Sequence record: NC_052657.1
From: Escherichia phage muut
Reading direction: 5' to 3' (one strand)
DNA length: 64,000 nucleotides
The notes under the pieces were generated by a model. It saw nothing but the letters and a program-made list of their open reading frames with translations. It did no database searches and was not told the DNA's origin. Shown here in pieces: positions 1,261-62,477 of the stretch (within the stretch, counting starts at the first letter, position 1; every line of letters begins with the position of its first letter). The position numbers and the translations under genes were made by a program.

Positions 1261-2332
1261 CTTATACAACGACACTTACAAAGAAGGTTTCTACCCTGTA
1301 TTTTTGGGAGAACAGTTAGGTATTTTTGATTCTATTAATGTAACATACCCAGAAATGCATCGTCTGTACAAACTACAAAAACAGCAAGATTGGGATGAAA
1401 ACGAAGTAAACTTAGATCAGACACGAAAAGATTTCGTAGCTTGTTCTAAAAGCAACTATGATGTTATGATCAAAAACCTATCCTTCCAATGGGAAAATGA
1501 TTCACTTGCTAAATCAATCATCACTTTGTTTGCACCATTTTTAAGCAACAACGAAGCATGTGCAATGATGATGAAGCAATCAGAAATGGAAGTTTTACAC
1601 GCTTTGACATATTCTGAAATTATTCGTCAGTGTATCCCTAATCCAAATGAAGTTATCGATCAGATTATGGAGAATGAAAGAATCTTCCAGAGGATGGGTA
1701 TAGTTGAAGAGATAATGAGTGATCTGGCAGAGGCAGGACATAAATATGCTCTAGGTCTGATTGAGAAGGATGATAACCTTCGTCTACTGATTCTGAAAGG
1801 AATGATTGCACTTATCGGTCTGGAAGGCATTCAATTCATATCATCTTTTGCTGCAACATTTGCCTTAGCAGAGCAGCAACTGTTTGTAGGTGCAGCTAAA
1901 CTCATTCAAAAAATTATGTTGGATGAACTATTGCACGTTAAAATGGATTATGCTATTATTGATGCACTGCTGAAAGATCCTGTCTGGAGAAAAGTATACG
2001 AAGATAATATCGACGTTCTGACAGAAATTCTTGACACAGTAGTTGGACAAGAGGAAGATTGGTGTGACTATCTGTTTAGTGAAGGAAGGATTATCGTTGG
2101 TGGTAACGCAGAGTTGTTCAAACTTTGGGTTTACTTCAATGCTGCGCCTATCTATCGCAGACTGAAAATGAAACACAAATTCCGTGCACCGAAGAAAAGT
2201 CCACTACCTTGGATGGATGTTTGGTTAAATCCAGATCAAATTCAAGCAGCAGCACAGGAGATCCAAATTACAGCTTACAAACTGAATTCAGCAAATAAAG
2301 ACGTAAGTGATGACGAGGAGTTAGACTTTTAA
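1247..2332 (+). CDS. nrdB: Ribonucleotide reductase class Ia small subunit
   Basis: 361 aa; di-iron/tyrosyl-radical region (EGIQFISSFA), position after nrdA. Confidence 0.9.
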   Translation: MAAINLYNDTYKEGFYPVFLGEQLGIFDSINVTYPEMHRLYKLQKQQDWDENEVNLDQTRKDFVACSKSNYDVMIKNLSFQWENDSLAKSIITLFAPFLSNNEACAMMMKQSEMEVLHALTYSEIIRQCIPNPNEVIDQIMENERIFQRMGIVEEIMSDLAEAGHKYALGLIEKDDNLRLLILKGMIALIGLEGIQFISSFAATFALAEQQLFVGAAKLIQKIMLDELLHVKMDYAIIDALLKDPVWRKVYEDNIDVLTEILDTVVGQEEDWCDYLFSEGRIIVGGNAELFKLWVYFNAAPIYRRLKMKHKFRAPKKSPLPWMDVWLNPDQIQAAAQEIQITAYKLNSANKDVSDDEELDF

Positions 2333-2550
2333 TGAAACTACTTTGTGTTGGATTAATTTCTGACTTCAAAGACGTTTTCGAAAAGGGAGCCTCTTATGAG
2401 GCTTCCGAATTACAGAATGGTTTCTGTGATGTTTACGGTAAACGTTTAAAAAAGAATGGTGATCATTGGCTAGGAGTTATGTCTTGCGGTCACATTATAG
2501 TTAATGGTGTAGCCAAGTTTGAAATTATCAAAGGAGAAAAAGATGATTGA
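2332..2550 (+). CDS. hypothetical protein (72 aa)
   Basis: ORF start overlaps nrdB stop; no motif recognised. Confidence 0.4.
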   Translation: MKLLCVGLISDFKDVFEKGASYEASELQNGFCDVYGKRLKKNGDHWLGVMSCGHIIVNGVAKFEIIKGEKDD

Positions 2551-2725
2551 TTTTGTTGATGTAGATATTAATTCTGACTTAACAGAAGATGAAGGTGGCG
2601 CTTTTGTGTGTTCAGATGGGGAAAAATGTTTTACTCTGATGGTAGAAACTTATGATGGTATCACAGAAATTCTGTTAACAGAGAATGAGTTAAAACAGAT
2701 GTTAGAAAAGATTGAGGAGCTTTAA
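2543..2725 (+). CDS. hypothetical acidic protein (60 aa)
   Basis: ATG with AAAGGAG RBS 24 nt inside ORF-track ORF 2519..2725. Confidence 0.45.
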   Translation: MIDFVDVDINSDLTEDEGGAFVCSDGEKCFTLMVETYDGITEILLTENELKQMLEKIEEL

Positions 2726-2727
2726 TA

Positions 2728-2874
2728 ATGGATGATGTAAGTATTTGTCCTATCTGCGGCGGCACTGGGAATTTTATTGTTAGTATGGAACAATTTATTC
2801 CTTGTTGGAATTGTAACGGCTTAGGTTTCGTTCATACAGAAGAAAAAGAAGAAGAGGAAGATAGTGGGAGTTGA
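2728..2874 (+). CDS. small zinc-ribbon protein (48 aa)
   Basis: CPICGG...CWNCNG two CxxC pairs; below the ORF-track size cut-off. Confidence 0.4.
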   Translation: MDDVSICPICGGTGNFIVSMEQFIPCWNCNGLGFVHTEEKEEEEDSGS

Positions 2875-3190
2875 TATTGCATGGCGTATGTTACAGGGTG
2901 CACCTTTTAATAAATGGGAAGAGGCTGTAGGAGAAGATCCTAGAATTGAAGAAGAATTTGATGGAGATTTTAATTGGTTCTTACAAGAAGGTCTTGATTT
3001 AAGCCGTATCTCACCTTTCTATGACGCTGATGCATCTTATTGCATATATGGGATTTATTTAGAAGGTGGCGAAGGAAGTATAGCTGTAGATCTTGAGCAA
3101 CTAAATAAGAATGCAAAAGAAGCCTACGCACAACTTCTTGAAAAATATAACATTGAAACGGAAACTATTATTTCTCAACACGTTTGGTAA
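2864..3190 (+). CDS. hypothetical protein (108 aa)
   Basis: GTG start with GAGGAA RBS; alternative ATG at 2888. Confidence 0.4.
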   Translation: MGVDIAWRMLQGAPFNKWEEAVGEDPRIEEEFDGDFNWFLQEGLDLSRISPFYDADASYCIYGIYLEGGEGSIAVDLEQLNKNAKEAYAQLLEKYNIETETIISQHVW

Positions 3191-3203
3191 GGAGGATAGT
3201 AGA

Positions 3204-3401
3204 ATGATGCTAGATCAACTGATCAATGCTCCTCGCGTAACAGTAAGTCCAAAAACATTTGCATCACTTTTAGAAGATGCTAGAGAGGTTTATAACTTTA
3301 CTGAAGAAGAGCTTCCTGTTCCTGTTAAAAAAGGTTCCAGATGGTTGTTTTATGAAGGTATTATTTTTACTGAAGGGAATAATTGGAAGGAGACTAAATG
3401 A
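3204..3401 (+). CDS. hypothetical protein (65 aa)
   Basis: ATG preceded by AAGGAGG; ORF-track 3111 start overlaps previous gene. Confidence 0.5.
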   Translation: MMLDQLINAPRVTVSPKTFASLLEDAREVYNFTEEELPVPVKKGSRWLFYEGIIFTEGNNWKETK

Positions 3402-4387
3402 AATACTTAGTAACAGGTGGTTTAGGCTTTATTGGAAGTGCGGTAGTTCGTTTCCTGGCTAAAAACACTAAGAATGATATTTACGTTATAGATAAATGGG
3501 GTTACGCTTCAGACCCTAGAAATTTATCAGAAACACCTAATGTAAAGTTTTGTCGTGTTGACTTGACAAATGCTCAGTTAACTGCTAAGATTGTGGCAGA
3601 TGTTAATCCAGATTATATAATGCATCTTGCAGCAGAAAGTCACGTAGATAATTCAATAGCATCACCGAGTGTTTTTATAAATTCAAATATTGTTGGAACA
3701 TTTAATCTTCTAGAAGCTGTTCGTTTAATGGGAGATAAATCAAATCTTAAAATGTTTCATCATATTTCAACAGATGAAGTGTATGGTGATCTGGAAGAAG
3801 GGGATTATCCGTTTACAGAACAGAATCCTTATAAGCCAAGTAGTCCATATGCTGCATCTAAGGCAGCAAGCGATCATTTGGTAAGAGCGTGGCATCGTAC
3901 TTATGGTATTCCGACAGTTATAACAAATTGTTCAAATAATTTTGGAGCGTATCATCATCCAGAAAAACTAATACCTAAAACGATAACAAATATTTTGATG
4001 CATAAACCAATCCCTGTTTATGGCAATGGTCTTCAAGTAAGAGATTGGTTATACGTTGACGATCACGCAGAAGCATTACACCTAGTAGTAACTAAAGGCA
4101 AATCTGGAGAAACATATAATATTGGGAGCAGAAACCCTAGAACTAATATTGATGTAATCTATATGATTTGTGATTATATGGATGCGGTGTATCCATCTGA
4201 AACAGATGCTTGTAGCCTCATTGAGATGGTTACAGATAGGCCTGGGCATGATTTAAGATATGAAGTGAATCCTTATAAGATTGAAAAGGAATTAGGGTGG
4301 AAAGCTAAAGGCACATTTGAAGAAAAACTTTATTCAACCATTGATTGGTATGTAGATAACAAAGAGTGGTGGGAAAATAAAGTTTAA
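3398..4387 (+). CDS. rmlB: dTDP-glucose 4,6-dehydratase
   Basis: 329 aa; N-terminal GGLGFIGS Rossmann motif, YAASK catalytic YxxxK. Confidence 0.9.
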
Positions 4388-4395
4388 GGAGGAGT

Positions 4396-5265
4396 ATGAA
4401 AGGTATTATCTTAGCAGGTGGTAGTGGAACAAGACTTTACCCAGTTACTAAAGGGGTTAGTAAACAACTATTACCAATTTACGATAAACCTATGATTTAT
4501 TATCCACTCTCTGTCCTAATGCTTTCTGGAATTAGGGAAATACTAATAATTACGACACCAGAAGATCAAATTAATTTTGTAAATCTTCTAGGTGATGGTT
4601 CTTCTTTTGGTATTTCCCTACAGTATGCAATACAGGACAACCCAAAAGGTTTAGCAGAAGCGTTTATTATTGGTGAGAGCTTTATTGGTGAAGATTCTGT
4701 AGCACTTGTTCTAGGTGATAATTTGTTCTTTGGTCAGAGTTTTGGTAGCATTTTAGATTCTGCTAAAGAACATATTGAAAAGAATGGTGGAGCTAATATT
4801 TTTGGGTATCACGTAAATGATCCTGAAAGATTTGGTGTTGTTGAGTTTGATTCTGAAGGTACAGTGGTAAGTATTGAAGAAAAACCAAAAGCACCAAAAA
4901 GCAATTATGCAATTACAGGCTTGTACTTTTACGATAATTCTGTTATACAGAAAGCTAAAAGCGTTAAACCTTCTGCTAGAGGGGAATTAGAGATCACAGA
5001 TATAAATGAGATGTACTGGAAAGAAAAGACTTTACGTGTCTGTAAACTAGGAAGAGGTTTCACTTGGCTGGATACAGGAACACATGAAAGTCTTATGGAA
5101 GCATCTCAATTTGTTCATGCAATAGAAAAGCAACAAGGTATGAAGGTTGCATGCCTGGAAGAGATTGCTTTTAAAAATGAATGGATTACTTTAGACTCTG
5201 TAAAAAGTTCTGGAGAGGTTTTAAGTAAAACAGACTACGGTAAGTATTTACTTAAATTAAAATAA
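4396..5265 (+). CDS. rmlA: glucose-1-phosphate thymidylyltransferase
   Basis: 289 aa; N-terminal [14 protein letters not shown] nucleotidyltransferase signature. Confidence 0.9.
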
Positions 5266-5277
5266 AGGGGGAATTAA

Positions 5278-5832
5278 ATGATTCAAGCAACAAAAATCGA
5301 AGATTTGTTGATCATTCAACCTGACGTTTACGGAGATGAACGTGGTTTTTTCTTAGAAAGTTTTAATCAGGCTTTATATGATCAATACATAGGTAAACAA
5401 AACTTTGTCCAAGATAACCATTCACGTTCTATTCGAGGAGTTCTACGTGGGCTTCATTTTCAAAAGAAAAACCCACAAGGGAAGTTAGTACGTTGTGTTC
5501 GTGGTGAAGTTTATGATGTTGCTGTAGATATTAGGGTTGATAGTCCAACATTTGGAGAATGGGTAGGTGTTCTCTTATCTGAAAAGAATAAAACACAATT
5601 TTGGATTCCTCCTGGTTTCGCTCATGGCTTTGTTGTGATTAGTGACATTGCTGATTTTGAATATAAATGTACAGAATATTACGATCCGACTTCAGAGTGT
5701 AGTCTTGCGTGGAATGATCCAGATATCAATATTGATTGGGGTTTTGATTTAATCTTTAATGATATTAATTTTAAACCTATCTTGTCACAAAAAGATCAGG
5801 AAGCCAAAACACTAAAGGAGATCATATTTTGA
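5278..5832 (+). CDS. rmlC: dTDP-4-dehydrorhamnose 3,5-epimerase
   Basis: 184 aa cupin-type; RGLHFQ and DERGFFLE segments typical of RmlC. Confidence 0.85.
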   Translation: MIQATKIEDLLIIQPDVYGDERGFFLESFNQALYDQYIGKQNFVQDNHSRSIRGVLRGLHFQKKNPQGKLVRCVRGEVYDVAVDIRVDSPTFGEWVGVLLSEKNKTQFWIPPGFAHGFVVISDIADFEYKCTEYYDPTSECSLAWNDPDINIDWGFDLIFNDINFKPILSQKDQEAKTLKEIIF

Positions 5833-6659
5833 CAAAATTTTTAATCTTTGGTTCAAAAGGTCAATTAGGACAATCTTTGGCAAAAGTTGCACCAGAAGAT
5901 GTTATTTTGATTGAAGCAAGTGATATAGACATTACCAACTTTAAAGATGTTATGAATAGTCTTGTACAGCACGTGCCTGATGTTGTTGTGAATTGTGCGG
6001 CTTACACGGCAGTAGATAAAGCTGAAGAAGATGTTAACACCTGTATAAATGTTAATGCATACGGTGCAACAAACATTGCCAAAGCATGTAATGATTTACT
6101 GATACAGTTTGTACATATTTCAACAGACTATGTTTTTGATGGGCATGTTGCTGGCACAGAAGATAGTAAAACAAACCCCTTGAACACCTACGGTTACAGT
6201 AAACAATTAGGTGAAACTTTAGTACAAACAGTTTGTCCTACAGCACTTATTATCAGAACAGCTTCTGTTTATAGTGAATTTGGACATAACTTTTTGAAAA
6301 CTATGTTGGAACGCTACAACGGTGGTCAAAAAGAATTTAATGTAGTATGTGATCATTTATCATGTCCTACTTATGCACCTGATCTTGCAGAAACAATTTT
6401 TAAACTTGTAAAAGATGGTGTAAATAGTAAAATTGTACACTATGCAGGTGCAGATTATATTTCTTGGTATGATTTTGCACGAAAGATATTTCTTGTTATA
6501 GATTTATCTGTTACAGTTAATCCTGTATCTGCTTCAACCTATAATTCCAAAGCAGTCAGACCAGCAACATCTTATTTAAAAACAGATCCTACTTTAAATC
6601 CGCGAAGTGTTGATAGCGGTATTGTAAGAACTTTAACTATACTTTTAAACAAGGAGTGA
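5829..6659 (+). CDS. rmlD: dTDP-4-dehydrorhamnose reductase
   Basis: 276 aa; N-terminal FGSKGQLGQ Rossmann motif; last gene of rml operon order. Confidence 0.8.
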   Translation: MTKFLIFGSKGQLGQSLAKVAPEDVILIEASDIDITNFKDVMNSLVQHVPDVVVNCAAYTAVDKAEEDVNTCINVNAYGATNIAKACNDLLIQFVHISTDYVFDGHVAGTEDSKTNPLNTYGYSKQLGETLVQTVCPTALIIRTASVYSEFGHNFLKTMLERYNGGQKEFNVVCDHLSCPTYAPDLAETIFKLVKDGVNSKIVHYAGADYISWYDFARKIFLVIDLSVTVNPVSASTYNSKAVRPATSYLKTDPTLNPRSVDSGIVRTLTILLNKE

Positions 6660-16723: not shown

Positions 16724-16845
16724 TGGAAACATTGTGGAAAGGCTGGAAGACTGCTCTGATAGCCTTTATAATTCCATTAACTTTTCTTGGTTGGTGTTTT
16801 TGGGAATTTATCTTTTGGTTAATTTCCCATATACATTGGGGGTAA
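16723..16845 (+). CDS. small hydrophobic peptide (40 aa)
   Basis: GTG overlapping dcm stop with GGAGG RBS; single TM-like segment. Confidence 0.3.
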   Translation: METLWKGWKTALIAFIIPLTFLGWCFWEFIFWLISHIHWG

Positions 16846-16846
16846 T

Positions 16847-17458
16847 ATGACTCAAAAAGTTGCATATCAAGTAGATCGTGAAGACGGTGAAGGTAGTGTT
16901 GTAGTTTTTGATACACATGGTCTTGCAGCAAGACGCAAAGGTGCTTGTCTACTGGACATTGGTGGTGAAGATGAATACTGCACTGTACGTAGAGTAAAAG
17001 AATTTGATCAATATGCTGAAAAAGGTTTTGTACCTGCAAAAGCACTATTAGAAGCTGGATGGTGGATACCTAGTGCACATGATTATGATATTTTGGAATC
17101 AGATACAGACGATTTTAACAGTGAAGATTTTGTTTTTTCTCTGGATGAAAAATGCGTTTGGAAAGATTGGGATGAAATGGAACGCCATGCTTATTTTATA
17201 AACGAAGCATTAGATCGTAAAACTTGGTTTGAGAATACAGTTAAAGCAGCGTATCCTCAATTTACTTTTACAGAATTTTGGGGTGGCCCACACCATATTA
17301 CTCATGTGGCATACTTCGAGTTCCCAGGCTCACGCTATAAAGGTACTGTCTATTGGGATTGGGACGAGGACAAAGAACCTTCTGCTCAAGACTTCCGTTG
17401 CTATGTTTGTCAAGGTGATCAAGAAGCCCTTGACAAGTACCTTAAAAGTCTGGTATAA
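16847..17458 (+). CDS. hypothetical protein (203 aa)
   Basis: ORF only. Confidence 0.5.
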   Translation: MTQKVAYQVDREDGEGSVVVFDTHGLAARRKGACLLDIGGEDEYCTVRRVKEFDQYAEKGFVPAKALLEAGWWIPSAHDYDILESDTDDFNSEDFVFSLDEKCVWKDWDEMERHAYFINEALDRKTWFENTVKAAYPQFTFTEFWGGPHHITHVAYFEFPGSRYKGTVYWDWDEDKEPSAQDFRCYVCQGDQEALDKYLKSLV

Positions 17459-17475
17459 TCCGTAAAACTTAACCA

Positions 17476-17499
17476 AAGCCCCAAGCAGGGGCTTTATTT
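17476..17499 (+). terminator. rho-independent terminator
   Basis: AAGCCCC-AAGCA-GGGGCTT then TATTTG. Confidence 0.6.
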
Positions 17500-17512: not shown

Positions 17513-18046
17513 ATGGGTTTTGATGACATGTTATTATATGAGGAGGCTTGTGTGAAAGAAGCTATGGCTTTACCAGTTTTATCTATTGATATTACAACAG
17601 TAGACACTTTTTCAGATTGTGAAACGTGTGGATCGTATTCGTCTATTGTACATGAAGTTAGTGGGGATTTAGGCACTTACGAAGATGGAGATTATGCAAG
17701 TTGTTTAGGTGATAATCGAGATGGTGAAGTGGCGAATGTTGCAAACTGGATTGCTTCTAAGTTAAAAGAAAGAAATCGTCCGTTCCCTAATCTTCTTACA
17801 CCAGAAGCTATGCTTAAAGCTGAACAAGAGATGTATGATTATGGTTATAAAGTAGATTATGACTATAATGATCCTAAATATAAAAAATTGAGTGACAAGT
17901 ATTGGGAACTAGCTAATGCTTATGATAAATACTACTCTACAGAAAACATTGTTAAATTGTTTTTAGATTTTGGAGTAGAAATTAATTGGGATTTCGAAGA
18001 GGAAGAGCGTTACGACGCATCTTCTTGGGAGGACGAGGGTGAATGA
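17513..18046 (+). CDS. hypothetical acidic protein (177 aa)
   Basis: ATG with GGAGGA RBS 15 nt inside ORF-track ORF. Confidence 0.5.
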   Translation: MGFDDMLLYEEACVKEAMALPVLSIDITTVDTFSDCETCGSYSSIVHEVSGDLGTYEDGDYASCLGDNRDGEVANVANWIASKLKERNRPFPNLLTPEAMLKAEQEMYDYGYKVDYDYNDPKYKKLSDKYWELANAYDKYYSTENIVKLFLDFGVEINWDFEEEERYDASSWEDEGE

Positions 18047-18783
18047 TAGAACGAAAACCCTTACCAGATAGAGATTACTTGTTATCAAGGTTTAGTGTGG
18101 AGAATGGTCGTCTTGTTTGGAAACCTAAACCTTCTACAACAAAAGAGAACAAAAGGTGGAATAGCAGATACGCAGGGAAGATTGCAGGGACTATTGATAA
18201 AGCTGGTTACTCTCATGTCAAAATAGATGGTATTGTATACTTGGAGCACAGAGTTTGTTTTAAAATGTATCATAATTACTGTCCAGATGTTATAGACCAT
18301 GATGACGGCAATAAACTTAATAATGCGGAAAGTAATTTATTGGATAGTAACTATTTATTAAATAATAACAATAGACACGTGGATGGGTTAGAAGGTATTT
18401 ATGAAAAGGATGGTGTTTTTCTTTGGGTTATAAACTACAACCAAGAAACTTTCTCTGTTTCAGGTTTCAAAACTAAAGAGGAAGCTATTGTAGCTAGAGC
18501 TTTAGCAAAACAAGAAATTTTGAAAGGATCTTATATCAAAAAAGAAAAGAAGCGTATAGATAACACTTCAGGATTAAGCTGTGTGTTTGTGGCAACAAGA
18601 GAGAGAACATTCTTTTTCAAGTTTGTGTTTGACAAGATCACGTATTGCAAATATGGTTTCAACGATCCAGAGAGATGTGCTATAGCTCTGGAGAAACTAA
18701 GATTGAAGGTGATGAAAGAAAAATATAAACCTGCAAATAAAAGCATTTGCGAAAAATATAAGGAGGAGATTTATGCCGCGTAG
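18043..18783 (+). CDS. HNH homing endonuclease with AP2-type DNA-binding domains
   Basis: GY..V.IDG..YLEHRV...IDHDDGNKLNN HNH_3 pattern; two AP2-like repeats. Confidence 0.55.
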   Translation: MIERKPLPDRDYLLSRFSVENGRLVWKPKPSTTKENKRWNSRYAGKIAGTIDKAGYSHVKIDGIVYLEHRVCFKMYHNYCPDVIDHDDGNKLNNAESNLLDSNYLLNNNNRHVDGLEGIYEKDGVFLWVINYNQETFSVSGFKTKEEAIVARALAKQEILKGSYIKKEKKRIDNTSGLSCVFVATRERTFFFKFVFDKITYCKYGFNDPERCAIALEKLRLKVMKEKYKPANKSICEKYKEEIYAA

Positions 18784-19588
18784 AGTCATATTCATAACTG
18801 GTGCAGGACTATCTGTGGATAGCGGTATCCCAGCTTTTAGAACAGATACTTCTTCAGGGAAGGCGTTATGGTCTTCTTATGATCTTTTTGAGGTCTGTGA
18901 CATTTTCAACTTCCGTGACGGTTATCAGCAAGAACAAGGTGTTCTTGATGCTATGGGTGGTTTAGATGCAGAAGGATATAACCTCTACCGTAAAACTCAC
19001 GACTTTTACAATAAACGTCGCGTGGAATTAGAGAAAGTTGACCCGAATCCAGCACATCTTCAGATTGGAGAATGGTTCAAAAAATATGGCCCAGAACGAA
19101 TTATTAACATTACTACTAACGTGGATGACCTCCTTGAACGAGCAGGAGTAGATAGGGAAGAAGTGCTACATGTGCACGGTTTTCTTCCTGAAATTACTTT
19201 TCAAAGAAAAGCTGGACAACCTACAATTGTAAAAGATGTTGGTTATCAAGCCATAGATGTAGATGACTACCATTATGTAAAACCTAATGTAATTTTCTTT
19301 GGGGAAGCTGCTCCACTTTACACGGATATGTATCATATTTTTGATACTTTGACCATGCAAGATTTGGTTGTTGTAGTAGGATGTTCAAACCAAGTTATCA
19401 ATTTTAATTGGGAATTATTCCCTGCACTTAATATGGGTACAAAAATGATCGTTGTTAACCCAGGAATTAATTACGAAGAAACTCTTCTTTACGAAGACAG
19501 AGGAGTTTTTGTTTATCGAGAAAAGGCCGCAGATGCTTTTAGCAATCCTGCTTTCATAAAAATGATAGAAGATCATTTGACTAAGTAA
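18773..19588 (+). CDS. Sir2-family NAD-dependent deacylase/ADP-ribosyltransferase-like protein
   Basis: ITGAGLSVDSGIPAFR, ITTNVDDLLERAG, VVVGCS motifs. Confidence 0.75.
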   Translation: MPRRVIFITGAGLSVDSGIPAFRTDTSSGKALWSSYDLFEVCDIFNFRDGYQQEQGVLDAMGGLDAEGYNLYRKTHDFYNKRRVELEKVDPNPAHLQIGEWFKKYGPERIINITTNVDDLLERAGVDREEVLHVHGFLPEITFQRKAGQPTIVKDVGYQAIDVDDYHYVKPNVIFFGEAAPLYTDMYHIFDTLTMQDLVVVVGCSNQVINFNWELFPALNMGTKMIVVNPGINYEETLLYEDRGVFVYREKAADAFSNPAFIKMIEDHLTK

Positions 19589-19595
19589 CTTGACC

Positions 19596-19616
19596 AAGGG
19601 GCGAAAGCCCCTTTTC
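19596..19616 (+). terminator. rho-independent terminator
   Basis: GGGGC-GAAA-GCCCC then TTTT (same hairpin as after lysozyme). Confidence 0.6.
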
Positions 19617-19631
19617 TTATAGGAGAATATT

Positions 19632-19889
19632 ATGACCACAGAACAAATCGTTAAAGACCATTTTATGATGCACTACGTTTATTACTTCAATAATAATCAA
19701 CAGAAAGGTGAGGGATTTTGTTATCTATCCGCACAACAAGGTTTTGGTATCCGTCAAGCAGATATTAACGGAGCAGTGGCTGGAATTACAAAAGGCTTGG
19801 TTGCAAACCTTAAAGATAATGTTGTTGTTGTCCCAACGTGCATCTCTTATCTCTCAACCTGCCCTGAAGAAGATTTTATGCATTCCTAA
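19632..19889 (+). CDS. hypothetical protein (85 aa)
   Basis: GGAG RBS. Confidence 0.5.
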   Translation: MTTEQIVKDHFMMHYVYYFNNNQQKGEGFCYLSAQQGFGIRQADINGAVAGITKGLVANLKDNVVVVPTCISYLSTCPEEDFMHS

Positions 19890-31258: not shown

Positions 31259-31576
31259 TTATGCTCCATTAAAGACGGGGCGCGTAGCGTTACGTTCATC
31301 ATCAACTGTAATAAGGTTTTTCATAACCATAACACCCTGAATATAGCCTAGCCAACGATGGCGTTTGGTTTCAGACATACCATTACACCCATCCTGAATT
31401 TCATTCAACATCCACAGTAAGTGGGAAACACCTGTTTCACTAGTATCTGGATCTTCTACAGAACTAAGCATAGTTTCATAGCGTTCACAAATTTCTGGGT
31501 AGAATTCATAGTCCTGTTGTACATCTCGCATTTCTCGAATGGAGTGAGGATCAATATACAAAGCTAAGGTTCTCAT
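31259..31576 (-). CDS. hypothetical protein (105 aa)
   Basis: GAGAGG RBS. Confidence 0.5.
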   Translation of the reverse strand: MRTLALYIDPHSIREMRDVQQDYEFYPEICERYETMLSSVEDPDTSETGVSHLLWMLNEIQDGCNGMSETKRHRWLGYIQGVMVMKNLITVDDERNATRPVFNGA

Positions 31577-31646
31577 TTACACCTCTCATTAGTAGTTTGT
31601 TATGCGCGATATTGCATATCTTATGGAACACAGTGTACAGACATTT

Positions 31647-32021
31647 CTATTCAATGCAAGCATTATTTGCATCTTCGATTCTGTCTTTCACCCATTGAAG
31701 ACGTAACGTGTTGGTATGACACGCCAAGTCTATACACTCTGAAAGGTAATCCATGCAATCTACATTGAACGGAAGATTGTAGTCCAGTCCTGCACATGTA
31801 AATTGTTTCCTCATTTCGTATTTCAAACTATCCAACAAACGATCACGCCATCTTTTATCTTCTTCTCTAGTTGTCTCACCAACAAAATCATCTACATAAT
31901 CTACCAGACAACCACATAAGCCACTCGTTGTGCGATTCATTGCAGGATAGTTGGCAATCCATGCTTTATAGAAGCGAAGCAATGTTGCACTACTCAACGG
32001 AACATTTTTACTCTCTTGCAT
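31647..32021 (-). CDS. hypothetical protein, paralog family A (124 aa)
   Basis: GAGAGGAG RBS. Confidence 0.5.
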   Translation of the reverse strand: MQESKNVPLSSATLLRFYKAWIANYPAMNRTTSGLCGCLVDYVDDFVGETTREEDKRWRDRLLDSLKYEMRKQFTCAGLDYNLPFNVDCMDYLSECIDLACHTNTLRLQWVKDRIEDANNACIE

Positions 32022-32369
32022 GATAATCTCCTCTCATCGTTAGTCATCTTTCATGGCAATCATCAATCACCAACATCATACGATCAATCTTAGGGAATTA
32101 CAATCGAATTATCATAGGGGATTCCTATCAATTATTCTATATATACCTATTATTTTTAACACACCCCTTTGTACATAATATAGACAAATAAATATCTATG
32201 CCACAAAAATTTTCTGGTATACCCGATTTATTTCGACACACCCCCTTTTCATAAGCGTAAAGTCAATAATATCAATAACTTGCCGCAAAATACTGCTCGC
32301 TTGCGAGAGGTGCTTAACGCGATTTTCAGCGCCCCGCGATTTTTCCCGACCGTCCCCCTCAAATATCAA

Positions 32370-39738: not shown

Positions 39739-39909
39739 TTATTTATTTTTTAACGTTAATGTTCCCAGCTTATCAGCGTGACGCAGACCAGGAAAGATCC
39801 ATTTTCCTGATTCATCTTTCACCGGGGCTTTAAGCGTAGCGCCCAGGTTGGCGGCGTTAACTTTACGTGCAACGTTGCGAGCGGCTTCACGGGTGGCGAA
39901 AGTGATCAT
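39739..39909 (-). CDS. small protein (56 aa)
   Basis: GAGGA RBS after hairpin; below ORF-track cut-off. Confidence 0.45.
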   Translation of the reverse strand: MITFATREAARNVARKVNAANLGATLKAPVKDESGKWIFPGLRHADKLGTLTLKNK

Positions 39910-39932
39910 GATGTTTCCTCTTCTCTTTGTTA

Positions 39933-39993
39933 GGCGGTGGGCTATTCCACCGCCTTAATGAATATAGTTTACTGATTTTAGTTATCTTGTCAA
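39933..39993 (-). promoter_or_regulatory. promoter plus stem-loop cassette
   Basis: TTGACA-16-TAAACT then GGCGGTGG-AATAGC-CCACCGCC. Confidence 0.55.
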
Positions 39994-40001
39994 GATTATT
40001 T

Positions 40002-40229
40002 TTAGTTTAATCCATCCAGGCACAACAAGCGATCAACGTTTAGATCGGTTAGGCTAATCGTTGGCACCTGGTAGGATTCGATGTACTCAACGCTCGACCA
40101 TTGCCCAAAGTTAGCGACCGCCCAGCTATTCAAGGAGGAGTGAAGATCATCCCCTTTCTTCTCTGTGATAACTGCTACTACCTGAGAGATTCCAACCGTA
40201 CCGGATACGCGAACAATAACGATAGCCAT
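40002..40229 (-). CDS. hypothetical protein (75 aa)
   Basis: AAAGG RBS after hairpin. Confidence 0.5.
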   Translation of the reverse strand: MAIVIVRVSGTVGISQVVAVITEKKGDDLHSSLNSWAVANFGQWSSVEYIESYQVPTISLTDLNVDRLLCLDGLN

Positions 40230-40251
40230 AATGATAACCTTTCTTTGATTT

Positions 40252-40994: not shown

Positions 40995-41100
40995 CAGGGG
41001 GAGTTTTTCGTGTGCCTTACTCCTGGGCTACTTAACGGGGTGTTACTTCGTTCCCCCGTCCTGATATGAAACATTTTACGCTTTTTATTCGTGCTGTCAA
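40995..41100 (-). promoter_or_regulatory. second promoter followed by double stem-loop
   Basis: TTGACA-16-TAAAAT, then ACGGGG...CCCCGT and GGAGT...ACTCC hairpins. Confidence 0.45.
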
Positions 41101-41106
41101 TGCTTT

Positions 41107-41472
41107 TTATAAATCTTTTTTACGTTTAACATCGCTTGCATGGCTGTATACAGCGATCCCATTGTCACGGCAAAAACGGGAAAGATACGCGCCGCGTGAA
41201 AACTCTTTACCTTCCAGGTTGATAACCTTGCTAAACTCTTCTAGGGCAACGGTATCAAAATGATCCCCGTATCCATATTGGAACGGCACGTTTACCACTT
41301 CGATCAGTTTACCGCCGATCTCAACGTCAACCATCAAAGAGAAATAAGTATTACCATAAGACTTTTGAAACCAGCGACGGGCGCTAATATGCACCGCTTC
41401 AATGCTGGATAGTTCAATTTTAGCCGTGTTAGCCAGGGTAGCATAAGCGGAAACATTAATATTTTTAGCCAT
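41107..41472 (-). CDS. hypothetical protein (121 aa)
   Basis: AGGA RBS. Confidence 0.5.
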   Translation of the reverse strand: MAKNINVSAYATLANTAKIELSSIEAVHISARRWFQKSYGNTYFSLMVDVEIGGKLIEVVNVPFQYGYGDHFDTVALEEFSKVINLEGKEFSRGAYLSRFCRDNGIAVYSHASDVKRKKDL

Positions 41473-41509
41473 GATTTTATTCCTTAGTAACGCTTCAATT
41501 TATATAAGC

Positions 41510-60210: not shown

Positions 60211-62010
60211 ATGACCCAAAAACTATATGAGGATGTAATCGGATTCCTCGAACAAACATCCGAAGAATTTACTCGTGAAAATGCAAACAAACCTGCAATG
60301 ATTGTTAATACTCACCGAGACTTACTAGCAGGTATCCTAAGCAAGCACATGGCAATGACCCATATTTTACCGGAAGATCTAGCAGAATGGCATAAAAGTG
60401 GGTATGGTCACATTCACGATTTAGATTATTTACTCTCACCTCTAACTAATTGTTGCCTGGTAAATTACCAAGATATGCTTGAGAACGGTTTCCGTATTGG
60501 TAATGCACATATTGAAAAACCAAAATCTATTGGCGTAGCAACTACTGTCCTAACTCAAATTATTCAAGCAGTAGCTTCTAGCCAATATGGTGGACAAACT
60601 TGTGCACATATTGATACTGGGCTTAGTCAATACGTTAAAGCAAGTTTTAACAAAATATATGCCGATGTTGGCGATTATGATATTGCTATGCGTATGGTAG
60701 ATAAACAGGTTTACGATGCAATGCAAACTTTAATCTACCAGGTGAACACCCTAATGAGTGTAAATGGTCAGTCACCTTTTATAACAATTAGTTTAGGTTT
60801 GGATACCTCTGCTTTTGGTAGAATGATCACTAAAAACTACCTAATGGTGCACAAACAAGGATTAGGAAAAGATAGGGTAACTCCTGTGTTTCCTAAAGTT
60901 ATCTTCTTCTTGGAAGATGGTGTTAACATGAAAGCTGGCGATCCAAACTATGATTTGAAGCAACTGGCAATGGAGTGTTGTGCTGAACGCATTTATCCTG
61001 ATTTTATCTCTGTACCTTTAAACAAAGAAGTTACAGGATCTTCAGATGGTCGCGTCACAAGCATGGGTTGCCGTAGTTTCTTGTCATACTATGCAACAGA
61101 GCAAGGTGAAAAATATGATGGTCGTTTCAATTTAGGCGTAGTTTCTTTAAACTTACCTATCATTGCAGCAGAGTCCCGTGAAAAGGGCATCTTATTTACT
61201 GAACTGTTGGAACAACATATGGAGATGGCGTATAAGGCACATATGCTACGTGTTAACCGTATTAGACATACCAAAGCATCTCAAAACCCTACATTGTTTA
61301 TGGAAGGGGCTTTAGCTCGACTAGAAGCTAATGAAGAGATTGGTAAACTATTCGAAGGTGGTTATGCCTCTATTAGTATCGGTTATGTAGGTTTAGCAGA
61401 AGCTATGGAGATTTTATACCCAGGTAACACCAATCCAAAAGCAATGGGTAAAAACATCCTTCAATATATGAAGGATATCTGTGGCACATTTAAAGAACGT
61501 TCTGGTTTAGCTTTTAGTTTGTATGGAACACCAGCAGAATCCTTGTGCTATAAATTTGCCAAAGCATTAAATGATCGCTATCCTGGTTCTATTGATCGTG
61601 ACTACTTGACAAACTCTTTCCATCAACCTGTGTGGATGCACACTACCCCGTTCCAAAAGTGGGATTATGAGGAAGGTTTTGCACAAATCAGTAATGGTGG
61701 GAACATAGGTTATGTAGAAACACCAAACCTTAAAAATAACTTGCAAGCACTGGAAACTCTTGTAGATTATGCCTACAACAAAATTCCTTATTTTGGCGTG
61801 AACCAACCTGTAGATCAGTGTTTCAAATGTGGTTTTCATGGTGAATTTAAGGCAACAGCTAAAGGCTTCGAGTGTCCAAGTTGTGGCAATCATGAGGAAG
61901 AATCTATATCTGTAATCAGAAGAGTGTCAGGATATCTTTCTGCCCCTAACTCTCGCCCTTATAATAAAGGTAAAATGCAAGAGGTATTAGAAAGGGAGAA
62001 ACATTTTTGA
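60211..62010 (+). CDS. nrdD: anaerobic ribonucleoside-triphosphate reductase (class III)
   Basis: ATG with GGAGG RBS; C-terminal glycyl-radical motif RVSGYL and CxxC...CxxC zinc site. Confidence 0.9.
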   Translation: MTQKLYEDVIGFLEQTSEEFTRENANKPAMIVNTHRDLLAGILSKHMAMTHILPEDLAEWHKSGYGHIHDLDYLLSPLTNCCLVNYQDMLENGFRIGNAHIEKPKSIGVATTVLTQIIQAVASSQYGGQTCAHIDTGLSQYVKASFNKIYADVGDYDIAMRMVDKQVYDAMQTLIYQVNTLMSVNGQSPFITISLGLDTSAFGRMITKNYLMVHKQGLGKDRVTPVFPKVIFFLEDGVNMKAGDPNYDLKQLAMECCAERIYPDFISVPLNKEVTGSSDGRVTSMGCRSFLSYYATEQGEKYDGRFNLGVVSLNLPIIAAESREKGILFTELLEQHMEMAYKAHMLRVNRIRHTKASQNPTLFMEGALARLEANEEIGKLFEGGYASISIGYVGLAEAMEILYPGNTNPKAMGKNILQYMKDICGTFKERSGLAFSLYGTPAESLCYKFAKALNDRYPGSIDRDYLTNSFHQPVWMHTTPFQKWDYEEGFAQISNGGNIGYVETPNLKNNLQALETLVDYAYNKIPYFGVNQPVDQCFKCGFHGEFKATAKGFECPSCGNHEEESISVIRRVSGYLSAPNSRPYNKGKMQEVLEREKHF

Positions 62011-62477
62011 ATTACGCCGGATATGAACCTGTTGACATGCTCAACGGTGACGGTGTAAGATGCTCTTTGTGGGTGAGCGGTTGTAGCCACGGTTGCCGTG
62101 GCTGCTTTAACCAGAAAGCCTGGTCGTATAACTACGGACAAGAGTTCACTACTGAAACATTAGATCTTATCTTGAAAGATTTATCTCGACCTTTCATTAA
62201 AGGATTAACAGTTTTAGGTGGTGAACCTCTTGACAAAGAGAACATTGACACTGTAGCGTATGTTCTTGAGAAGGTAAGAGATTGTTTTGGAAACAAAAAA
62301 GATATTGTCTTATACACAGGATATCTTTTTGAAGAAATTCCAGAGAAAATTAAAAAACTGGTTGACATAGTGATAGATGGTAAGTATGATATGAATCAAC
62401 CAACAACGAAACGTTATAGAGGCTCAGATAATCAACGAATGTGGGTTAAGAAAGACAACATTTGGGAATCTGACTAA
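62007..62477 (+). CDS. nrdG: anaerobic RNR activating enzyme (radical SAM)
   Basis: TTG start overlapping nrdD stop; MNYAGYEPVD N-terminus; cysteine cluster CSHGCRGC. Confidence 0.85.
   Translation: MNYAGYEPVDMLNGDGVRCSLWVSGCSHGCRGCFNQKAWSYNYGQEFTTETLDLILKDLSRPFIKGLTVLGGEPLDKENIDTVAYVLEKVRDCFGNKKDIVLYTGYLFEEIPEKIKKLVDIVIDGKYDMNQPTTKRYRGSDNQRMWVKKDNIWESD

Follow-up and report, generated by a model that had tools for sequence, protein, structure and literature searches.

Gene organization at the locus

The window, i.e., the whole stretch of 64,000 nucleotides analysed here, belongs to a phi92-like Justusliebigvirus. Between a gene similar to phi92 gp039 and a Sir2-family gene, it contains an open reading frame (ORF) of 246 aa, referred to here as the homing endonuclease gene (HEG) (Table 1). 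The ATG start of this ORF was confirmed, and it overlaps the stop codon of the upstream gene as ATGA (18043-18046, 4 nt), as the initial annotation had described. At its 3' end, the ORF runs 11 nt into the start of Sir2. The two neighbors are assigned to phrog_9509 and PF02146, in line with the earlier view that they are unrelated. In all annotated GenBank records examined, HEG was labelled "hypothetical protein".

Table 1. Features at the HEG locus (positions in the window)
Feature	Position	Strand	Description
Sigma-70-like promoter	17430..17459	+	TTGACA-18-TATAAT with TG, 12/12 matches; consensus scan only
Upstream gene, phi92 gp039-like	17513..18046	+	phrog_9509, function unknown
Left edge of mobile patch	18028..18042	+	GGAGGACGAGGGTGA; comparison of six HEG-plus loci
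HEG	18043..18783	+	ATG start, 246 aa, 741 nt
HEG protein, N-terminal domains			N-terminal beta, aa 1-67; HNN/HNH_3 His-Me finger, aa 68-112
HNH(N) catalytic motif coding region	18244..18378	+	H69-R70, D85-H86, N94, N98, N107, N110
AP2-like repeat 1	18385..18525	+	aa 115-161; three strands, aa 119-142, and helix, aa 145-161
AP2-like repeat 2	18559..18723	+	aa 173-227
Sir2-family gene	18773..19588	+	271 aa; PF02146, 3e-20
Sir2 tract linked to HEG	18800..18893	+	codons ~10-40, encodes GAGLSVDSGIPAFRTD...ALWSSY; candidate target, inferred
Extended co-conversion tract	18894..19345	+	Phapecoctavirus-type sequence; specific to Justusliebigvirus copies
Terminator-like hairpin 3' of Sir2	19596..19613	+	consensus scan only

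The predicted promoter upstream of the gp039-like gene is likely to serve a transcription unit comprising the gp039-like gene, the endonuclease gene, and Sir2, and the hairpin downstream of Sir2 probably ends this unit. The gp039-like gene was called with 177 aa in contigs carrying the same HEG protein at the same junction. The longest ORF for this gene begins with TTG at 17498.

The last five codons of the gp039-like gene (EDEGE-stop) come from the mobile cassette and take the place of the native ...DDDYEEDIECEE-stop seen in HEG-minus Justusliebigvirus. The 15 nt at the left edge of the cassette did not differ among the six HEG-plus phage loci examined, which represent both genera, and they contain the GGAGGA Shine-Dalgarno sequence for the endonuclease. 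At this edge, GGAGGACGA is sequence native to Phapecoctavirus, and the phi92 homology stops at 18030 on the left side. An AGGAGG ribosome-binding site for Sir2 is located in the 3' end of HEG. As judged from this layout, the cassette does no harm by design: ATGA and a GGAGGA of its own couple its translation to that of the upstream gene, and Sir2 receives a new AGGAGG and start from it.

HEG has its own ORF, start, and stop, and no intron or other RNA family was found around it in Rfam (E<=1). The earlier description of the gene as free-standing was right because no intron or intein surrounds it. A family HMM search of the 64-kb window found no HEG-family paralogues.

Nuclease family, motif and fold of the HEG protein

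Among phage endonucleases, the HEG protein belongs to the HNH_3 ("HNN") family, which is large. PHROG 99 "HNH endonuclease" was matched with 3e-34 over aa 3-161. The Pfam HNH_3 profile (PF13392) matched aa 68-99 with 22.2 bits (E 1.1e-4), a marginal result slightly below the gathering score of 24.8. The precomputed PF13392 matches of P0002 and P0003 (~70% identity to the HEG protein) were likewise marked weak, and all 60 of the aligned homologues matched HNH_3 at E<=0.01. A word-indexed protein search retrieved only four homologues, and exhaustive HMMER was needed to obtain the family (16,017 cluster representatives at E<=0.001). NCBIfam gave nothing at E<=10, and the PDB sequence search returned only noise.

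The HR, D-H (general base), structural Asn, and metal-binding Asn boxes were all found in the protein. In the 60-sequence alignment, the invariant columns H69, D85, H86, N94, and N98 were all kept, as were the near-invariant N107 and N110, so that the HNH_3 pattern reported in the initial annotation was borne out. The usual NLR box reads NLL (L100). Because Cys dyads are absent, the protein is of the zinc-less "HNN" type. The AlphaFold model was confident (pLDDT 86); it is similar to the homing endonuclease I-HmuI, with two AP2/ERF-like beta3-alpha units after the I-HmuI-like part, and it has the beta-beta-alpha-metal fold of solved HNH homing enzymes. Its structural neighbors in BFVD were phage HNH homing endonucleases.

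The AP2 assignment of both repeats, which had been proposed earlier from the sequence, is supported by structure and profile evidence without a direct Pfam AP2 match. The protein model contains the three-stranded antiparallel sheet packed on a C-terminal helix that characterizes AP2, and repeat 2 matched the family AP2 profile. Repeat 2 begins with NTSG, a motif typical of AP2 domains in the HNH_3-AP2 family, and forms an extension at the C-terminus that is confined to the closest homologues (P0001-P0003 and P0005). Pfam AP2 (PF00847) did not match the whole protein at E<=0.1 or three fragments at E<=10, and the sole match reported in its place was Arm-DNA-bind_4, which was weak (E 0.019). Of the 60 aligned homologues, 26 matched PF00847 (best 3.9e-8), and they did so in the alignment columns of repeat 1. 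When the two repeats were modelled alone by single-sequence AlphaFold, the pLDDT of 60 was too low for a structure search. The catalytic residues and both DNA-binding repeats were conserved down to 54% identity.

Distribution and transfer between genera

HEG was found in 7 of 118 related phage records bearing the locus, corresponding to six phages, three each in Justusliebigvirus and Phapecoctavirus. In all seven records, it lies between the gp039-like gene and Sir2; in the HEG-minus relatives, the locus is otherwise collinear and 721 nt shorter. Homologues with 93%, 70%, and 69% identity occupy the same position directly upstream of Sir2 in other lineages, and one insertion site is thereby kept at 69-100% protein identity. 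Across the compared genomes, HEG is sporadic at one fixed locus. The comparison of related phages proposed in the initial annotation uncovered this presence/absence polymorphism, and the gene is neither conserved everywhere (7 of 118 records) nor devoid of a nuclease motif, which is intact. The copy in ECML-183-2, a record of possibly poor quality, is frameshifted in repeat 2, and therefore not all HEG copies need be active. Further close copies were absent from IMG/VR (queried with the window protein) and from the JGI metagenomes (queried with P0005, ~55% identical, and with the subfamily alignment). The literature search retrieved no description of HEG or its locus in Stephanstirmvirinae, though the HNH-AP2 class is described.

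The window was compared with nepoznato (Phapecoctavirus) and phi92 (HEG-minus Justusliebigvirus). Its identity to nepoznato was 50.9% at 17600-18027, rose to 100% at 18028-18042, and was 98.4% over HEG, 95.5-96.2% at 18784-19340, and 69.4% beyond. Against phi92, the left side was 97.9% identical, the 18784-19340 interval 55-61%, and the right side 98.4%. The HEG patch was the longest and most similar stretch between the 64-kb window and 78 kb of nepoznato (background 65-80%). The transferred patch in the window is ~1.3 kb long and consists of 15 nt of the upstream gene end, the 741-nt ORF, and ~570 nt of Sir2, with the right crossover at 19340-19347. Within Sir2, the extended co-conversion tract matched nepoznato at 96% identity and phi92 at 61%. 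Over its first ~560 nt, the window Sir2 is foreign to the phi92-type backbone, and the earlier suggestion that HEG marks a recently mobile neighbor holds for this gene.

Judged from these alignments, the 95-100% identity of HEG and the first ~560 nt of Sir2 is a footprint of homing and co-conversion, and the comparison establishes that HEG moved between Phapecoctavirus and Justusliebigvirus. Transfer most likely proceeded from Phapecoctavirus to Justusliebigvirus because the GAGGAGGACGA left junction and the MPRR Sir2 start are native to Phapecoctavirus.

Near-isogenic pairs were also available: nepoznato and DIJ07P2 differed from nieznany, a HEG-minus Phapecoctavirus, and KKP 3954 by a ~733-nt insertion and ~36 mismatches within the adjoining ~100 nt of Sir2. 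Past these ~100 nt, DIJ07P2 differed from nieznany/KKP 3954 by no more than ~1 mismatch per 100 nt. A second diverged patch was present deeper in Sir2 of nepoznato (19123-19340 against nieznany). The right ends of the tracts were located at ~18880 (about Sir2 nt 108; L029 and L011), ~18893-18937 (DIJ07P2), 19340-19347 (window), and at least 19357 (KKP_3264, BME3, KKE7M, and UAB_1). The boundary at ~19340, seen against both phi92 and nepoznato, had been considered as a hotspot or cleavage site; this idea was dropped because a single crossover gives the coincidence trivially and other HEG-plus genomes end elsewhere.

A shorter Sir2 tract accompanied HEG in every HEG-plus lineage and was unlike all ordinary HEG-minus alleles. 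Four of four HEG lineages carried the signature TCT-GTN...GCN-TTY-AGR...TGG-(T/A)NT-TCT, and eight HEG-minus lineages carried AGY-GCN...ACN-TTY-CGN...TGG-GAN-GAR at the same place. The diagnostic variant spans Sir2 nt ~28-108, which encode the NAD-binding GAGLS...SGI..FR motif. The linked tract starts at ~18800 in UAB_1, and two lineages narrow the region to ~18800-18880. UAB_1, PD114, and cardinal are HEG-minus yet carry the "resistant" tract. From this pattern, we infer that Sir2 nt ~28-108 are the cleavage and immunity region. Linkage of the tract could also mean common descent of one cassette, not selection for immunity. Simple gene loss by recombination likewise fits the three HEG-minus phages with the "resistant" tract.

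Interpretation and comparison with known systems

HEG is very probably a free-standing homing endonuclease of the zinc-less HNH_3/"HNN"-AP2 class, specialized for the gp039-like/Sir2 junction, with nuclease activity predicted. During co-infection, the enzyme would recognize a long site via its N-terminal domain and two AP2-like domains and would cut or nick the HEG-minus Sir2 allele within roughly Sir2 nt 28-108. The proposed target DNA, which encodes the conserved NAD-binding GAGLSADSGI(R/Q)TFRT motif, lies 30-110 bp downstream of the HEG insertion point. By analogy with I-HmuI, the metal may be bound by D85 and N107 or N110, and H86 may act as the general base. Recombinational repair off the HEG-plus genome would copy the resistant Sir2 variant and, usually, HEG; repair stopping short of HEG would account for resistant alleles that lack HEG, as in UAB_1, PD114, and cardinal.

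Instead, ordinary homologous recombination during co-infection by different Stephanstirmvirinae might have moved the patch, with HEG as a passive passenger whose protein no longer drives, or never drove, its own spread. Co-infection recombination could in principle yield such a 1.3-kb patch without a nuclease, and other short patches of ~90% identity were found between the window and nepoznato (2846-3194, 31573-32198, 39743-40232, and 41071-41475). Sir2 is also mosaic independently of HEG, as the second patch of nepoznato shows, and the frameshifted copy in ECML-183-2 also counts in favor of this reading. However, the HEG patch exceeds all others in length and identity and starts within 15 nt of the ORF, four diverged HEG lineages keep the exact insertion point together with the same diagnostic Sir2 tract, and the catalytic residues and both repeats are conserved as described above. 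We consider a passive origin improbable.

Two readings that assign the protein another task were rejected on the points counted against each. It is very unlikely to be a domesticated DNA-binding protein, such as a transcriptional regulator or interference factor with an inactive or repurposed nuclease domain that, for example, regulates the Sir2 operon or silences a gene of the host or of a competitor. The DNA-binding domains of homing endonucleases are described as the source of plant AP2 transcription factors and of DNA-binding proteins in phage-satellite conflicts, such as CapR (PMC10448857), and both the extra AP2-like repeat, unusual for the family, and the change from NLR to NLL would suit such a role; however, every invariant catalytic and structural nuclease residue is kept, and a footprint of co-conversion like the one seen here is the product of an active nuclease. 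HEG is also missing from ~94% of the close relatives and therefore performs no function they need. Still less credible, to the point of being negligible, is an HNH endonuclease of the HK97 gp74 type that assists the terminase in packaging. HNH proteins are common in phage packaging machines (Kala et al. 2014, as cited in PMC12210895), and an HNH endonuclease encoded by BME3 is given such a role in the paper on that phage. HEG, however, is part of an early-type operon, flanked by Sir2 and a gene of unknown function with no terminase adjoining, and it shares fold and family with the I-HmuI-like HNH_3-AP2 homing enzymes. As most relatives lack HEG and are isolated, propagated phages, it is not needed for packaging.

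As a homing endonuclease gene, HEG explains a local anomaly, namely two Justusliebigvirus Sir2 alleles that are 55-61% identical over the first ~560 nt with flanks at 98%, and a gene labelled "hypothetical protein" receives a correct annotation. On the sequence comparisons, HEG exemplifies a known kind of mobile gene; the case is clear and unusually well documented but otherwise ordinary. The near-isogenic plus/minus pairs in two genera, the four diverged HEG lineages at one site, and the resistant HEG-less recombinants form a natural dataset from which the target site of an HNH-AP2 enzyme can be predicted in a directly testable form. To our knowledge, a mapped site is known for few enzymes of the HNH_3-AP2 class, although the class is very abundant. 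For phage-therapy genomics of phi92-like and phAPEC8-like phages, the locus is flagged as one of stimulated recombination between co-infecting phages.

A more far-reaching and tentative possibility is that a long-lived HEG lineage is devoted to the phage sirtuin gene and reads the DNA of the NAD motif through its tandem AP2-like domains, and that its spread imposes the "resistant" Sir2 allele, i.e., a selfish gene driving functional diversification across genera. The "resistant" allele carries changes at otherwise conserved residues (A14V, R/Q19 to P/A/C, T20A, and D/E-E to S/N-S). If this were true, the four or more different tract end points would already place the cleavage site within ~80 bp.

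Among known enzymes, I-HmuI is a strand-specific nickase. It is encoded in an intron of Bacillus phage SPO1 (PDB 1u3e), whereas HEG is free-standing, and its C-terminus consists of NUMOD-type helices and a helix-turn-helix, where HEG has AP2-like domains. Compared with AP2/ERF domains (AtERF1 GCC-box domain 2gcc, TEM1 7et4, WRI1 7wq5, and the Plasmodium SIP2 tandem AP2 6sy0), the HEG repeats have a sequence likeness too low for a direct Pfam AP2 match. AP2/ERF domains serve transcription factors, whereas the AP2-like domains of HEG, as modelled, would serve a nuclease.

Free-standing HNN/HNH_3-AP2 genes are known from the Xanthomonas phages Xp10/OP1/Xop411, with copies in T5, T1, Rtp, and RB16/RB43 (Magnani et al. 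2004; PMC2248197), and the IPA-HNH genes of vibriophage ICP1 are related to them (PMC10448857). Like HEG, these genes encode an N-terminal zinc-less HNH(N) with HR...DH...N...N boxes followed by AP2, and they are free-standing, sporadic, and prone to decay (PMC2248197; PMC10448857). Typical members have ~170-185 aa and one AP2, whereas HEG adds a second AP2-like repeat as a ~85-aa C-terminal extension. The Xoo-phage genes were judged to insert with no preferred site, whereas the HEG lineage keeps one insertion site.

The T4-type intronless homing systems (SegG at gene 32, MobE at nrdB, and other Seg/Mob) also involve free-standing genes between conserved genes. They share with the HEG case cleavage in a neighboring gene at some distance from the insertion point, which for HEG is deduced, co-conversion of flanking markers with variable tract lengths, and some products that acquire the resistant site but not the endonuclease gene (Liu et al. 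2003; PMC2790892). SegG is a GIY-YIG enzyme and MobE an HNH enzyme without AP2, whereas HEG represents another nuclease subfamily in other host phages. The putative target of HEG, as indicated by sequence comparison, is the accessory gene Sir2 and not an essential replication gene.

Gene organization and predicted protein architecture

The endonuclease ORF shares its ATG with the TGA of the upstream gp039-like ORF (ATGA at 18043-18046), and at its 3' end it shares 11 nt with the downstream ORF (18773..19588), including that ORF's ATG. The sole match of the upstream protein was PHROG 9509 (function unknown), and the downstream protein belongs to the Sir2 family (Pfam PF02146, 3e-20; PHROG 2162, 1e-98). 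The gene order at the locus is methylase, gp041, gp039-like, endonuclease, and Sir2. These ORF positions and family matches confirmed the position and length of the gene, its overlap with the upstream stop, and the unrelatedness of its two neighbours, as described in the initial annotation. A GC-rich hairpin with a terminator-like score on both strands (17475-17495) directly follows a predicted sigma-70 promoter, between gp041 and the gp039-like gene.

Features of the locus and identity of its segments to nepoznato (Phapecoctavirus) and phi92 (Justusliebigvirus, lacking the gene)
Feature	Position	Strand	Description	Identity to nepoznato	Identity to phi92
Sigma-70 promoter	17430-17459		Perfect consensus TTGACA-18-TATAAT with extended -10 TG; consensus match only		
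Segment	17600-18027			50.9%	97.9%
Segment	18028-18042			100%	Not comparable
Endonuclease ORF	18043..18783	+	ATG start, 246 aa	98.4%	Absent
Segment	18784-18893			95.5%	55.5%
Segment	18894-19340			96.2%	61.5%
Segment	19341-19588			69.4%	98.4%
Terminator-like hairpin	19596-19613		3' of Sir2; consensus match only		

Pfam HNH_3 matched aa 68-99 of the protein with 22.2 bits, slightly under the gathering score of 24.8, and PHROG 99 ('HNH endonuclease') matched aa 3-161 (3e-34). An exhaustive HMMER search retrieved 16,017 cluster representatives as homologues (E ≤ 0.001), mostly 165-190 aa long and aligned to query aa ~5-160. In an alignment of 60 sequences, the window protein has all the invariant (H69, D85, H86, N94, N98, and A148) and near-invariant (R70, L99, N107, and N110) residues; its sole motif departure is NLL instead of the usual NLR. 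The absence of Cys dyads places it in the zinc-less 'HNN' type known from HNN-AP2 endonucleases of phages (PMC2248197).

Pfam HNH_3 matched all 60 aligned sequences, and Pfam AP2 matched 26 of them, C-terminal to the motif; a Pfam AP2 search of the window protein, whole and in fragments, gave no direct match. The AlphaFold2 model built on the alignment was confident (mean pLDDT of 86) and comprised an N-terminal beta domain and a His-Me finger, followed by two beta-beta-beta-alpha units (aa 119-161 and 180-227). Of these units, the second forms a ~85-aa C-terminal extension shared only by the closest homologues P0001, P0002, P0003, and P0005 (93%, 70%, 68%, and 54% identical over the alignment, respectively). 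This repeat starts with NTSG, the motif opening the AP2 domain in the HNH_3-AP2 family, matched the family AP2 profile in hhalign (probability of 93%, P of 2.7e-7), was reported by hmmsearch as a second domain at the same HMM positions, and is strongly conserved across the five full-length homologues. Thus, the family profiles, alignment, model, and second-repeat profile matches bear out the proposed HNH_3 domain with two AP2-like repeats, the AP2 part being predicted from structural and profile–profile evidence.

Distribution of the gene and the linked Sir2 allele

The locus is 96-98% identical to that of phi92-like Justusliebigvirus phages (Stephanstirmvirinae) and spans 2,021 nt in most of the 118 matching phage records, compared with 2,742 nt with the gene. 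The presence/absence comparison called for in the initial annotation showed the gene to be sporadic: among these records, tblastn found the protein at ≥95% identity in seven, corresponding to six phages of Justusliebigvirus (KKP_3264, BME3, and KKE7M) and Phapecoctavirus (nepoznato with two records, DIJ07P2, and ECML-183-2). The next-best matches were HNH genes ≤37% identical, located elsewhere in unrelated phages. In Justusliebigvirus phages lacking the homing endonuclease gene (HEG-minus; phi92 and UAB_1), gp039 and Sir2 directly overlap by 13 nt. The ECML-183-2 copy (2501-3236 of its locus) is frameshifted by a 2-nt deletion near aa 187, inside repeat 2, and no CDS is annotated in the record from locus position 1349 to 4088; either the copy is decaying, in line with the gain-and-decay cycle typical of these genes, or the sequence is of poor quality there.

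Ten contigs encode a protein identical to that of the window; in the six listed, it sits at the gp039/Sir2 junction. P0001 (93% variant) occupies the same junction in Phapecoctavirus-like contigs, and in two contigs from more distant phages P0002 (70%) and P0003 (69%) directly precede Sir2. The Sir2 start in all four endonuclease lineages is ...GAGLSVDSG(I/V)(P/A/C)AFRTD...ALW(S/N)SYD (codons TCT-GTN...GCN-TTY-AGR). In eight HEG-minus lineages (including phi92, L017/L018, nieznany/KKP 3954, 536P1, L021, L016, which is a relative of the 70% homologue's lineage L011, and L019/L020), it is ...GAGLSADSG(I/V)(R/Q)TFRT(D/E)...LW(D/E)E(Y/W)D (codons AGY-GCN...ACN-TTY-CGN).

The linked tract ends on the right at about Sir2 nt 108 in L029 (a contig with the 93% variant) and L011, at 18893-18937 in DIJ07P2, at 19340-19347 in the window, and at 19357 at least in KKP_3264, BME3, and KKE7M. 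The only HEG-minus phages carrying the tract are UAB_1, PD114, and cardinal; at the nucleotide level, UAB_1 is phi92-type to 18798 and endonuclease-type from ~18800 on, and the other two have the same 18810-19340 allele. As the tract ends and the UAB_1 start bracket it, 18800-18880/18893 is the stretch invariably found with the gene. This linkage suggests that the recognition/cleavage site lies in the corresponding HEG-minus DNA and that the linked Sir2 variant may confer immunity to the enzyme; UAB_1-type alleles would then be gene-less repair products with a resistant site or secondary losses. Across Justusliebigvirus, Sir2 occurs as two alleles whose first ~560 nt (18784-19340) are only 55-61% identical, flanked on both sides by sequence of 98% identity, and the window-type allele (≥95% identity, 18810-19340) is present in only nine phage-collection records, namely six HEG-plus records and the HEG-minus UAB_1, PD114, and cardinal.

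Near-isogenic Phapecoctavirus phages were compared (HEG-plus nepoznato and DIJ07P2 versus HEG-minus nieznany and KKP 3954). Near-complete identity extends as far as the insertion point, followed by a ~733-nt gap, and ~36 mismatches are concentrated in the ~100 nt of Sir2 that come next (window-equivalent 18793-18889); beyond this stretch, mismatches in DIJ07P2 fall to 0-1 per 100 nt over >800 nt. From this pattern, the minimal unit is the ORF plus approximately the first 120 nt of diverged Sir2. DIJ07P2 also has a 300-nt, strongly diverged patch in its gp039-like gene (locus 2101-2400; 14, 42, and 30-32 mismatches per 100 nt against nepoznato/nieznany), separated from the endonuclease gene by ~100 nt of near-identity, which may be an independent mosaic or the trace of a different donor.

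Other endonuclease genes were seen at related loci. The Phapecoctavirus-like Logan contigs with the 93% variant (L029-L031) carry a second HNH_3 gene (188 aa, locus 174-740) ~2.3 kb upstream, inserted beside a DUF7275/DUF7277 gene, and in L029 the Sir2 operon is closely followed by a 330-aa CapR/DUF723 gene (4904-5896), a relative of T5orf172-type homing endonucleases, making this neighbourhood an endonuclease-gene hotspot. In L011, an 89-aa HNH protein (PF01844/HNH_5; 2906-3175) is encoded ~1 kb upstream of the 70% homologue, and the gp039-like gene is shrunk to a 44-aa ORF.

Inter-genus transfer footprint

When the whole 64-kb window was aligned to 78 kb of nepoznato, no other stretch was as long or as similar as the endonuclease patch (18028-19636); the background identity is 65-80% in other aligned segments, with few exceptions of ~89-92% (≤630 nt). 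The segment identities to nepoznato and phi92 indicate a phi92-type backbone with a ~1.3-kb Phapecoctavirus-type patch, whose left edge lies 15 nt before the ORF and whose right crossover (19340-19347) lies inside Sir2. The transfer was probably from Phapecoctavirus to Justusliebigvirus, because the left-junction GAGGAGGACGA is the native gp039 end in HEG-minus Phapecoctavirus (nieznany and KKP 3954), the Sir2 start MPRR is Phapecoctavirus-like, phi92 homology ends at 18030, overlapping the incoming sequence by 3 nt (GGA), and the native gp039 C-terminus DDDYEEDIECEE was swapped for EDEGE.

A second inter-genus patch was observed in ECML-183-2, ~600 nt upstream of the endonuclease gene, where the gp041 homologue is 92-98% identical to the window at 16843-17443 (nepoznato, 62-83%). 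Elsewhere in the window, a ~2.1-kb stretch with RmlB-like (dTDP-glucose 4,6-dehydratase, 329 aa) and RmlA-like (glucose-1-phosphate thymidylyltransferase, 289 aa) genes (3398-5265; assigned by eye from translations) is without an equivalent in nepoznato, where only an epimerase and a reductase are encoded. A 136-aa ORF (850-1260) separates the genes for the large and small subunits of ribonucleotide reductase; nothing in nepoznato corresponds to 920-1230, and the segments on either side are directly adjacent there. The nrdD (anaerobic ribonucleotide reductase) region, contiguous at 60271-62444, is interrupted in nepoznato (L014 17020-19981) by an insert of ~777 nt with a 169-aa ORF (nepoznato_193), probably another intron or endonuclease insertion absent from the window.

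Proposed homing and comparison with known systems

By analogy with the T4 Seg and Mob genes, the gene may spread by intronless homing, a process established for those genes (Liu et al. 2003, as cited; PMC2790892). During co-infection, the enzyme would be expressed from the early operon, bind a long site using the tandem AP2-like domains together with the N-terminal domain, and cut or nick the Sir2 5' region of an HEG-minus genome; recombinational repair would then copy the resistant tract and the gene. Sporadic presence, the transfer footprint, and the family motifs all support the original interpretation as a free-standing homing endonuclease.

Our literature search found no paper describing the endonuclease gene or the gp039/Sir2 locus. 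The gene is a hypothetical protein in the annotated GenBank records examined, and the nepoznato orthologue is already an 'HNH endonuclease' in UniProt. Free-standing HNN/HNH_3-AP2 endonuclease genes are a long-recognised and very abundant phage class (PMC2248197; PMC10448857; Magnani et al. 2004, cited therein). On sequence grounds, we consider the finding real and the gene a member of this class with a minor architectural variation. Its value is a ready-made, testable target-site prediction and an explanation of the Sir2 allele dimorphism, with no new principle. Compared with the known class, the features specific to the window endonuclease are the second AP2-like repeat, the strict Sir2-junction fidelity in four diverged lineages, and an unusually explicit co-conversion record across two genera.
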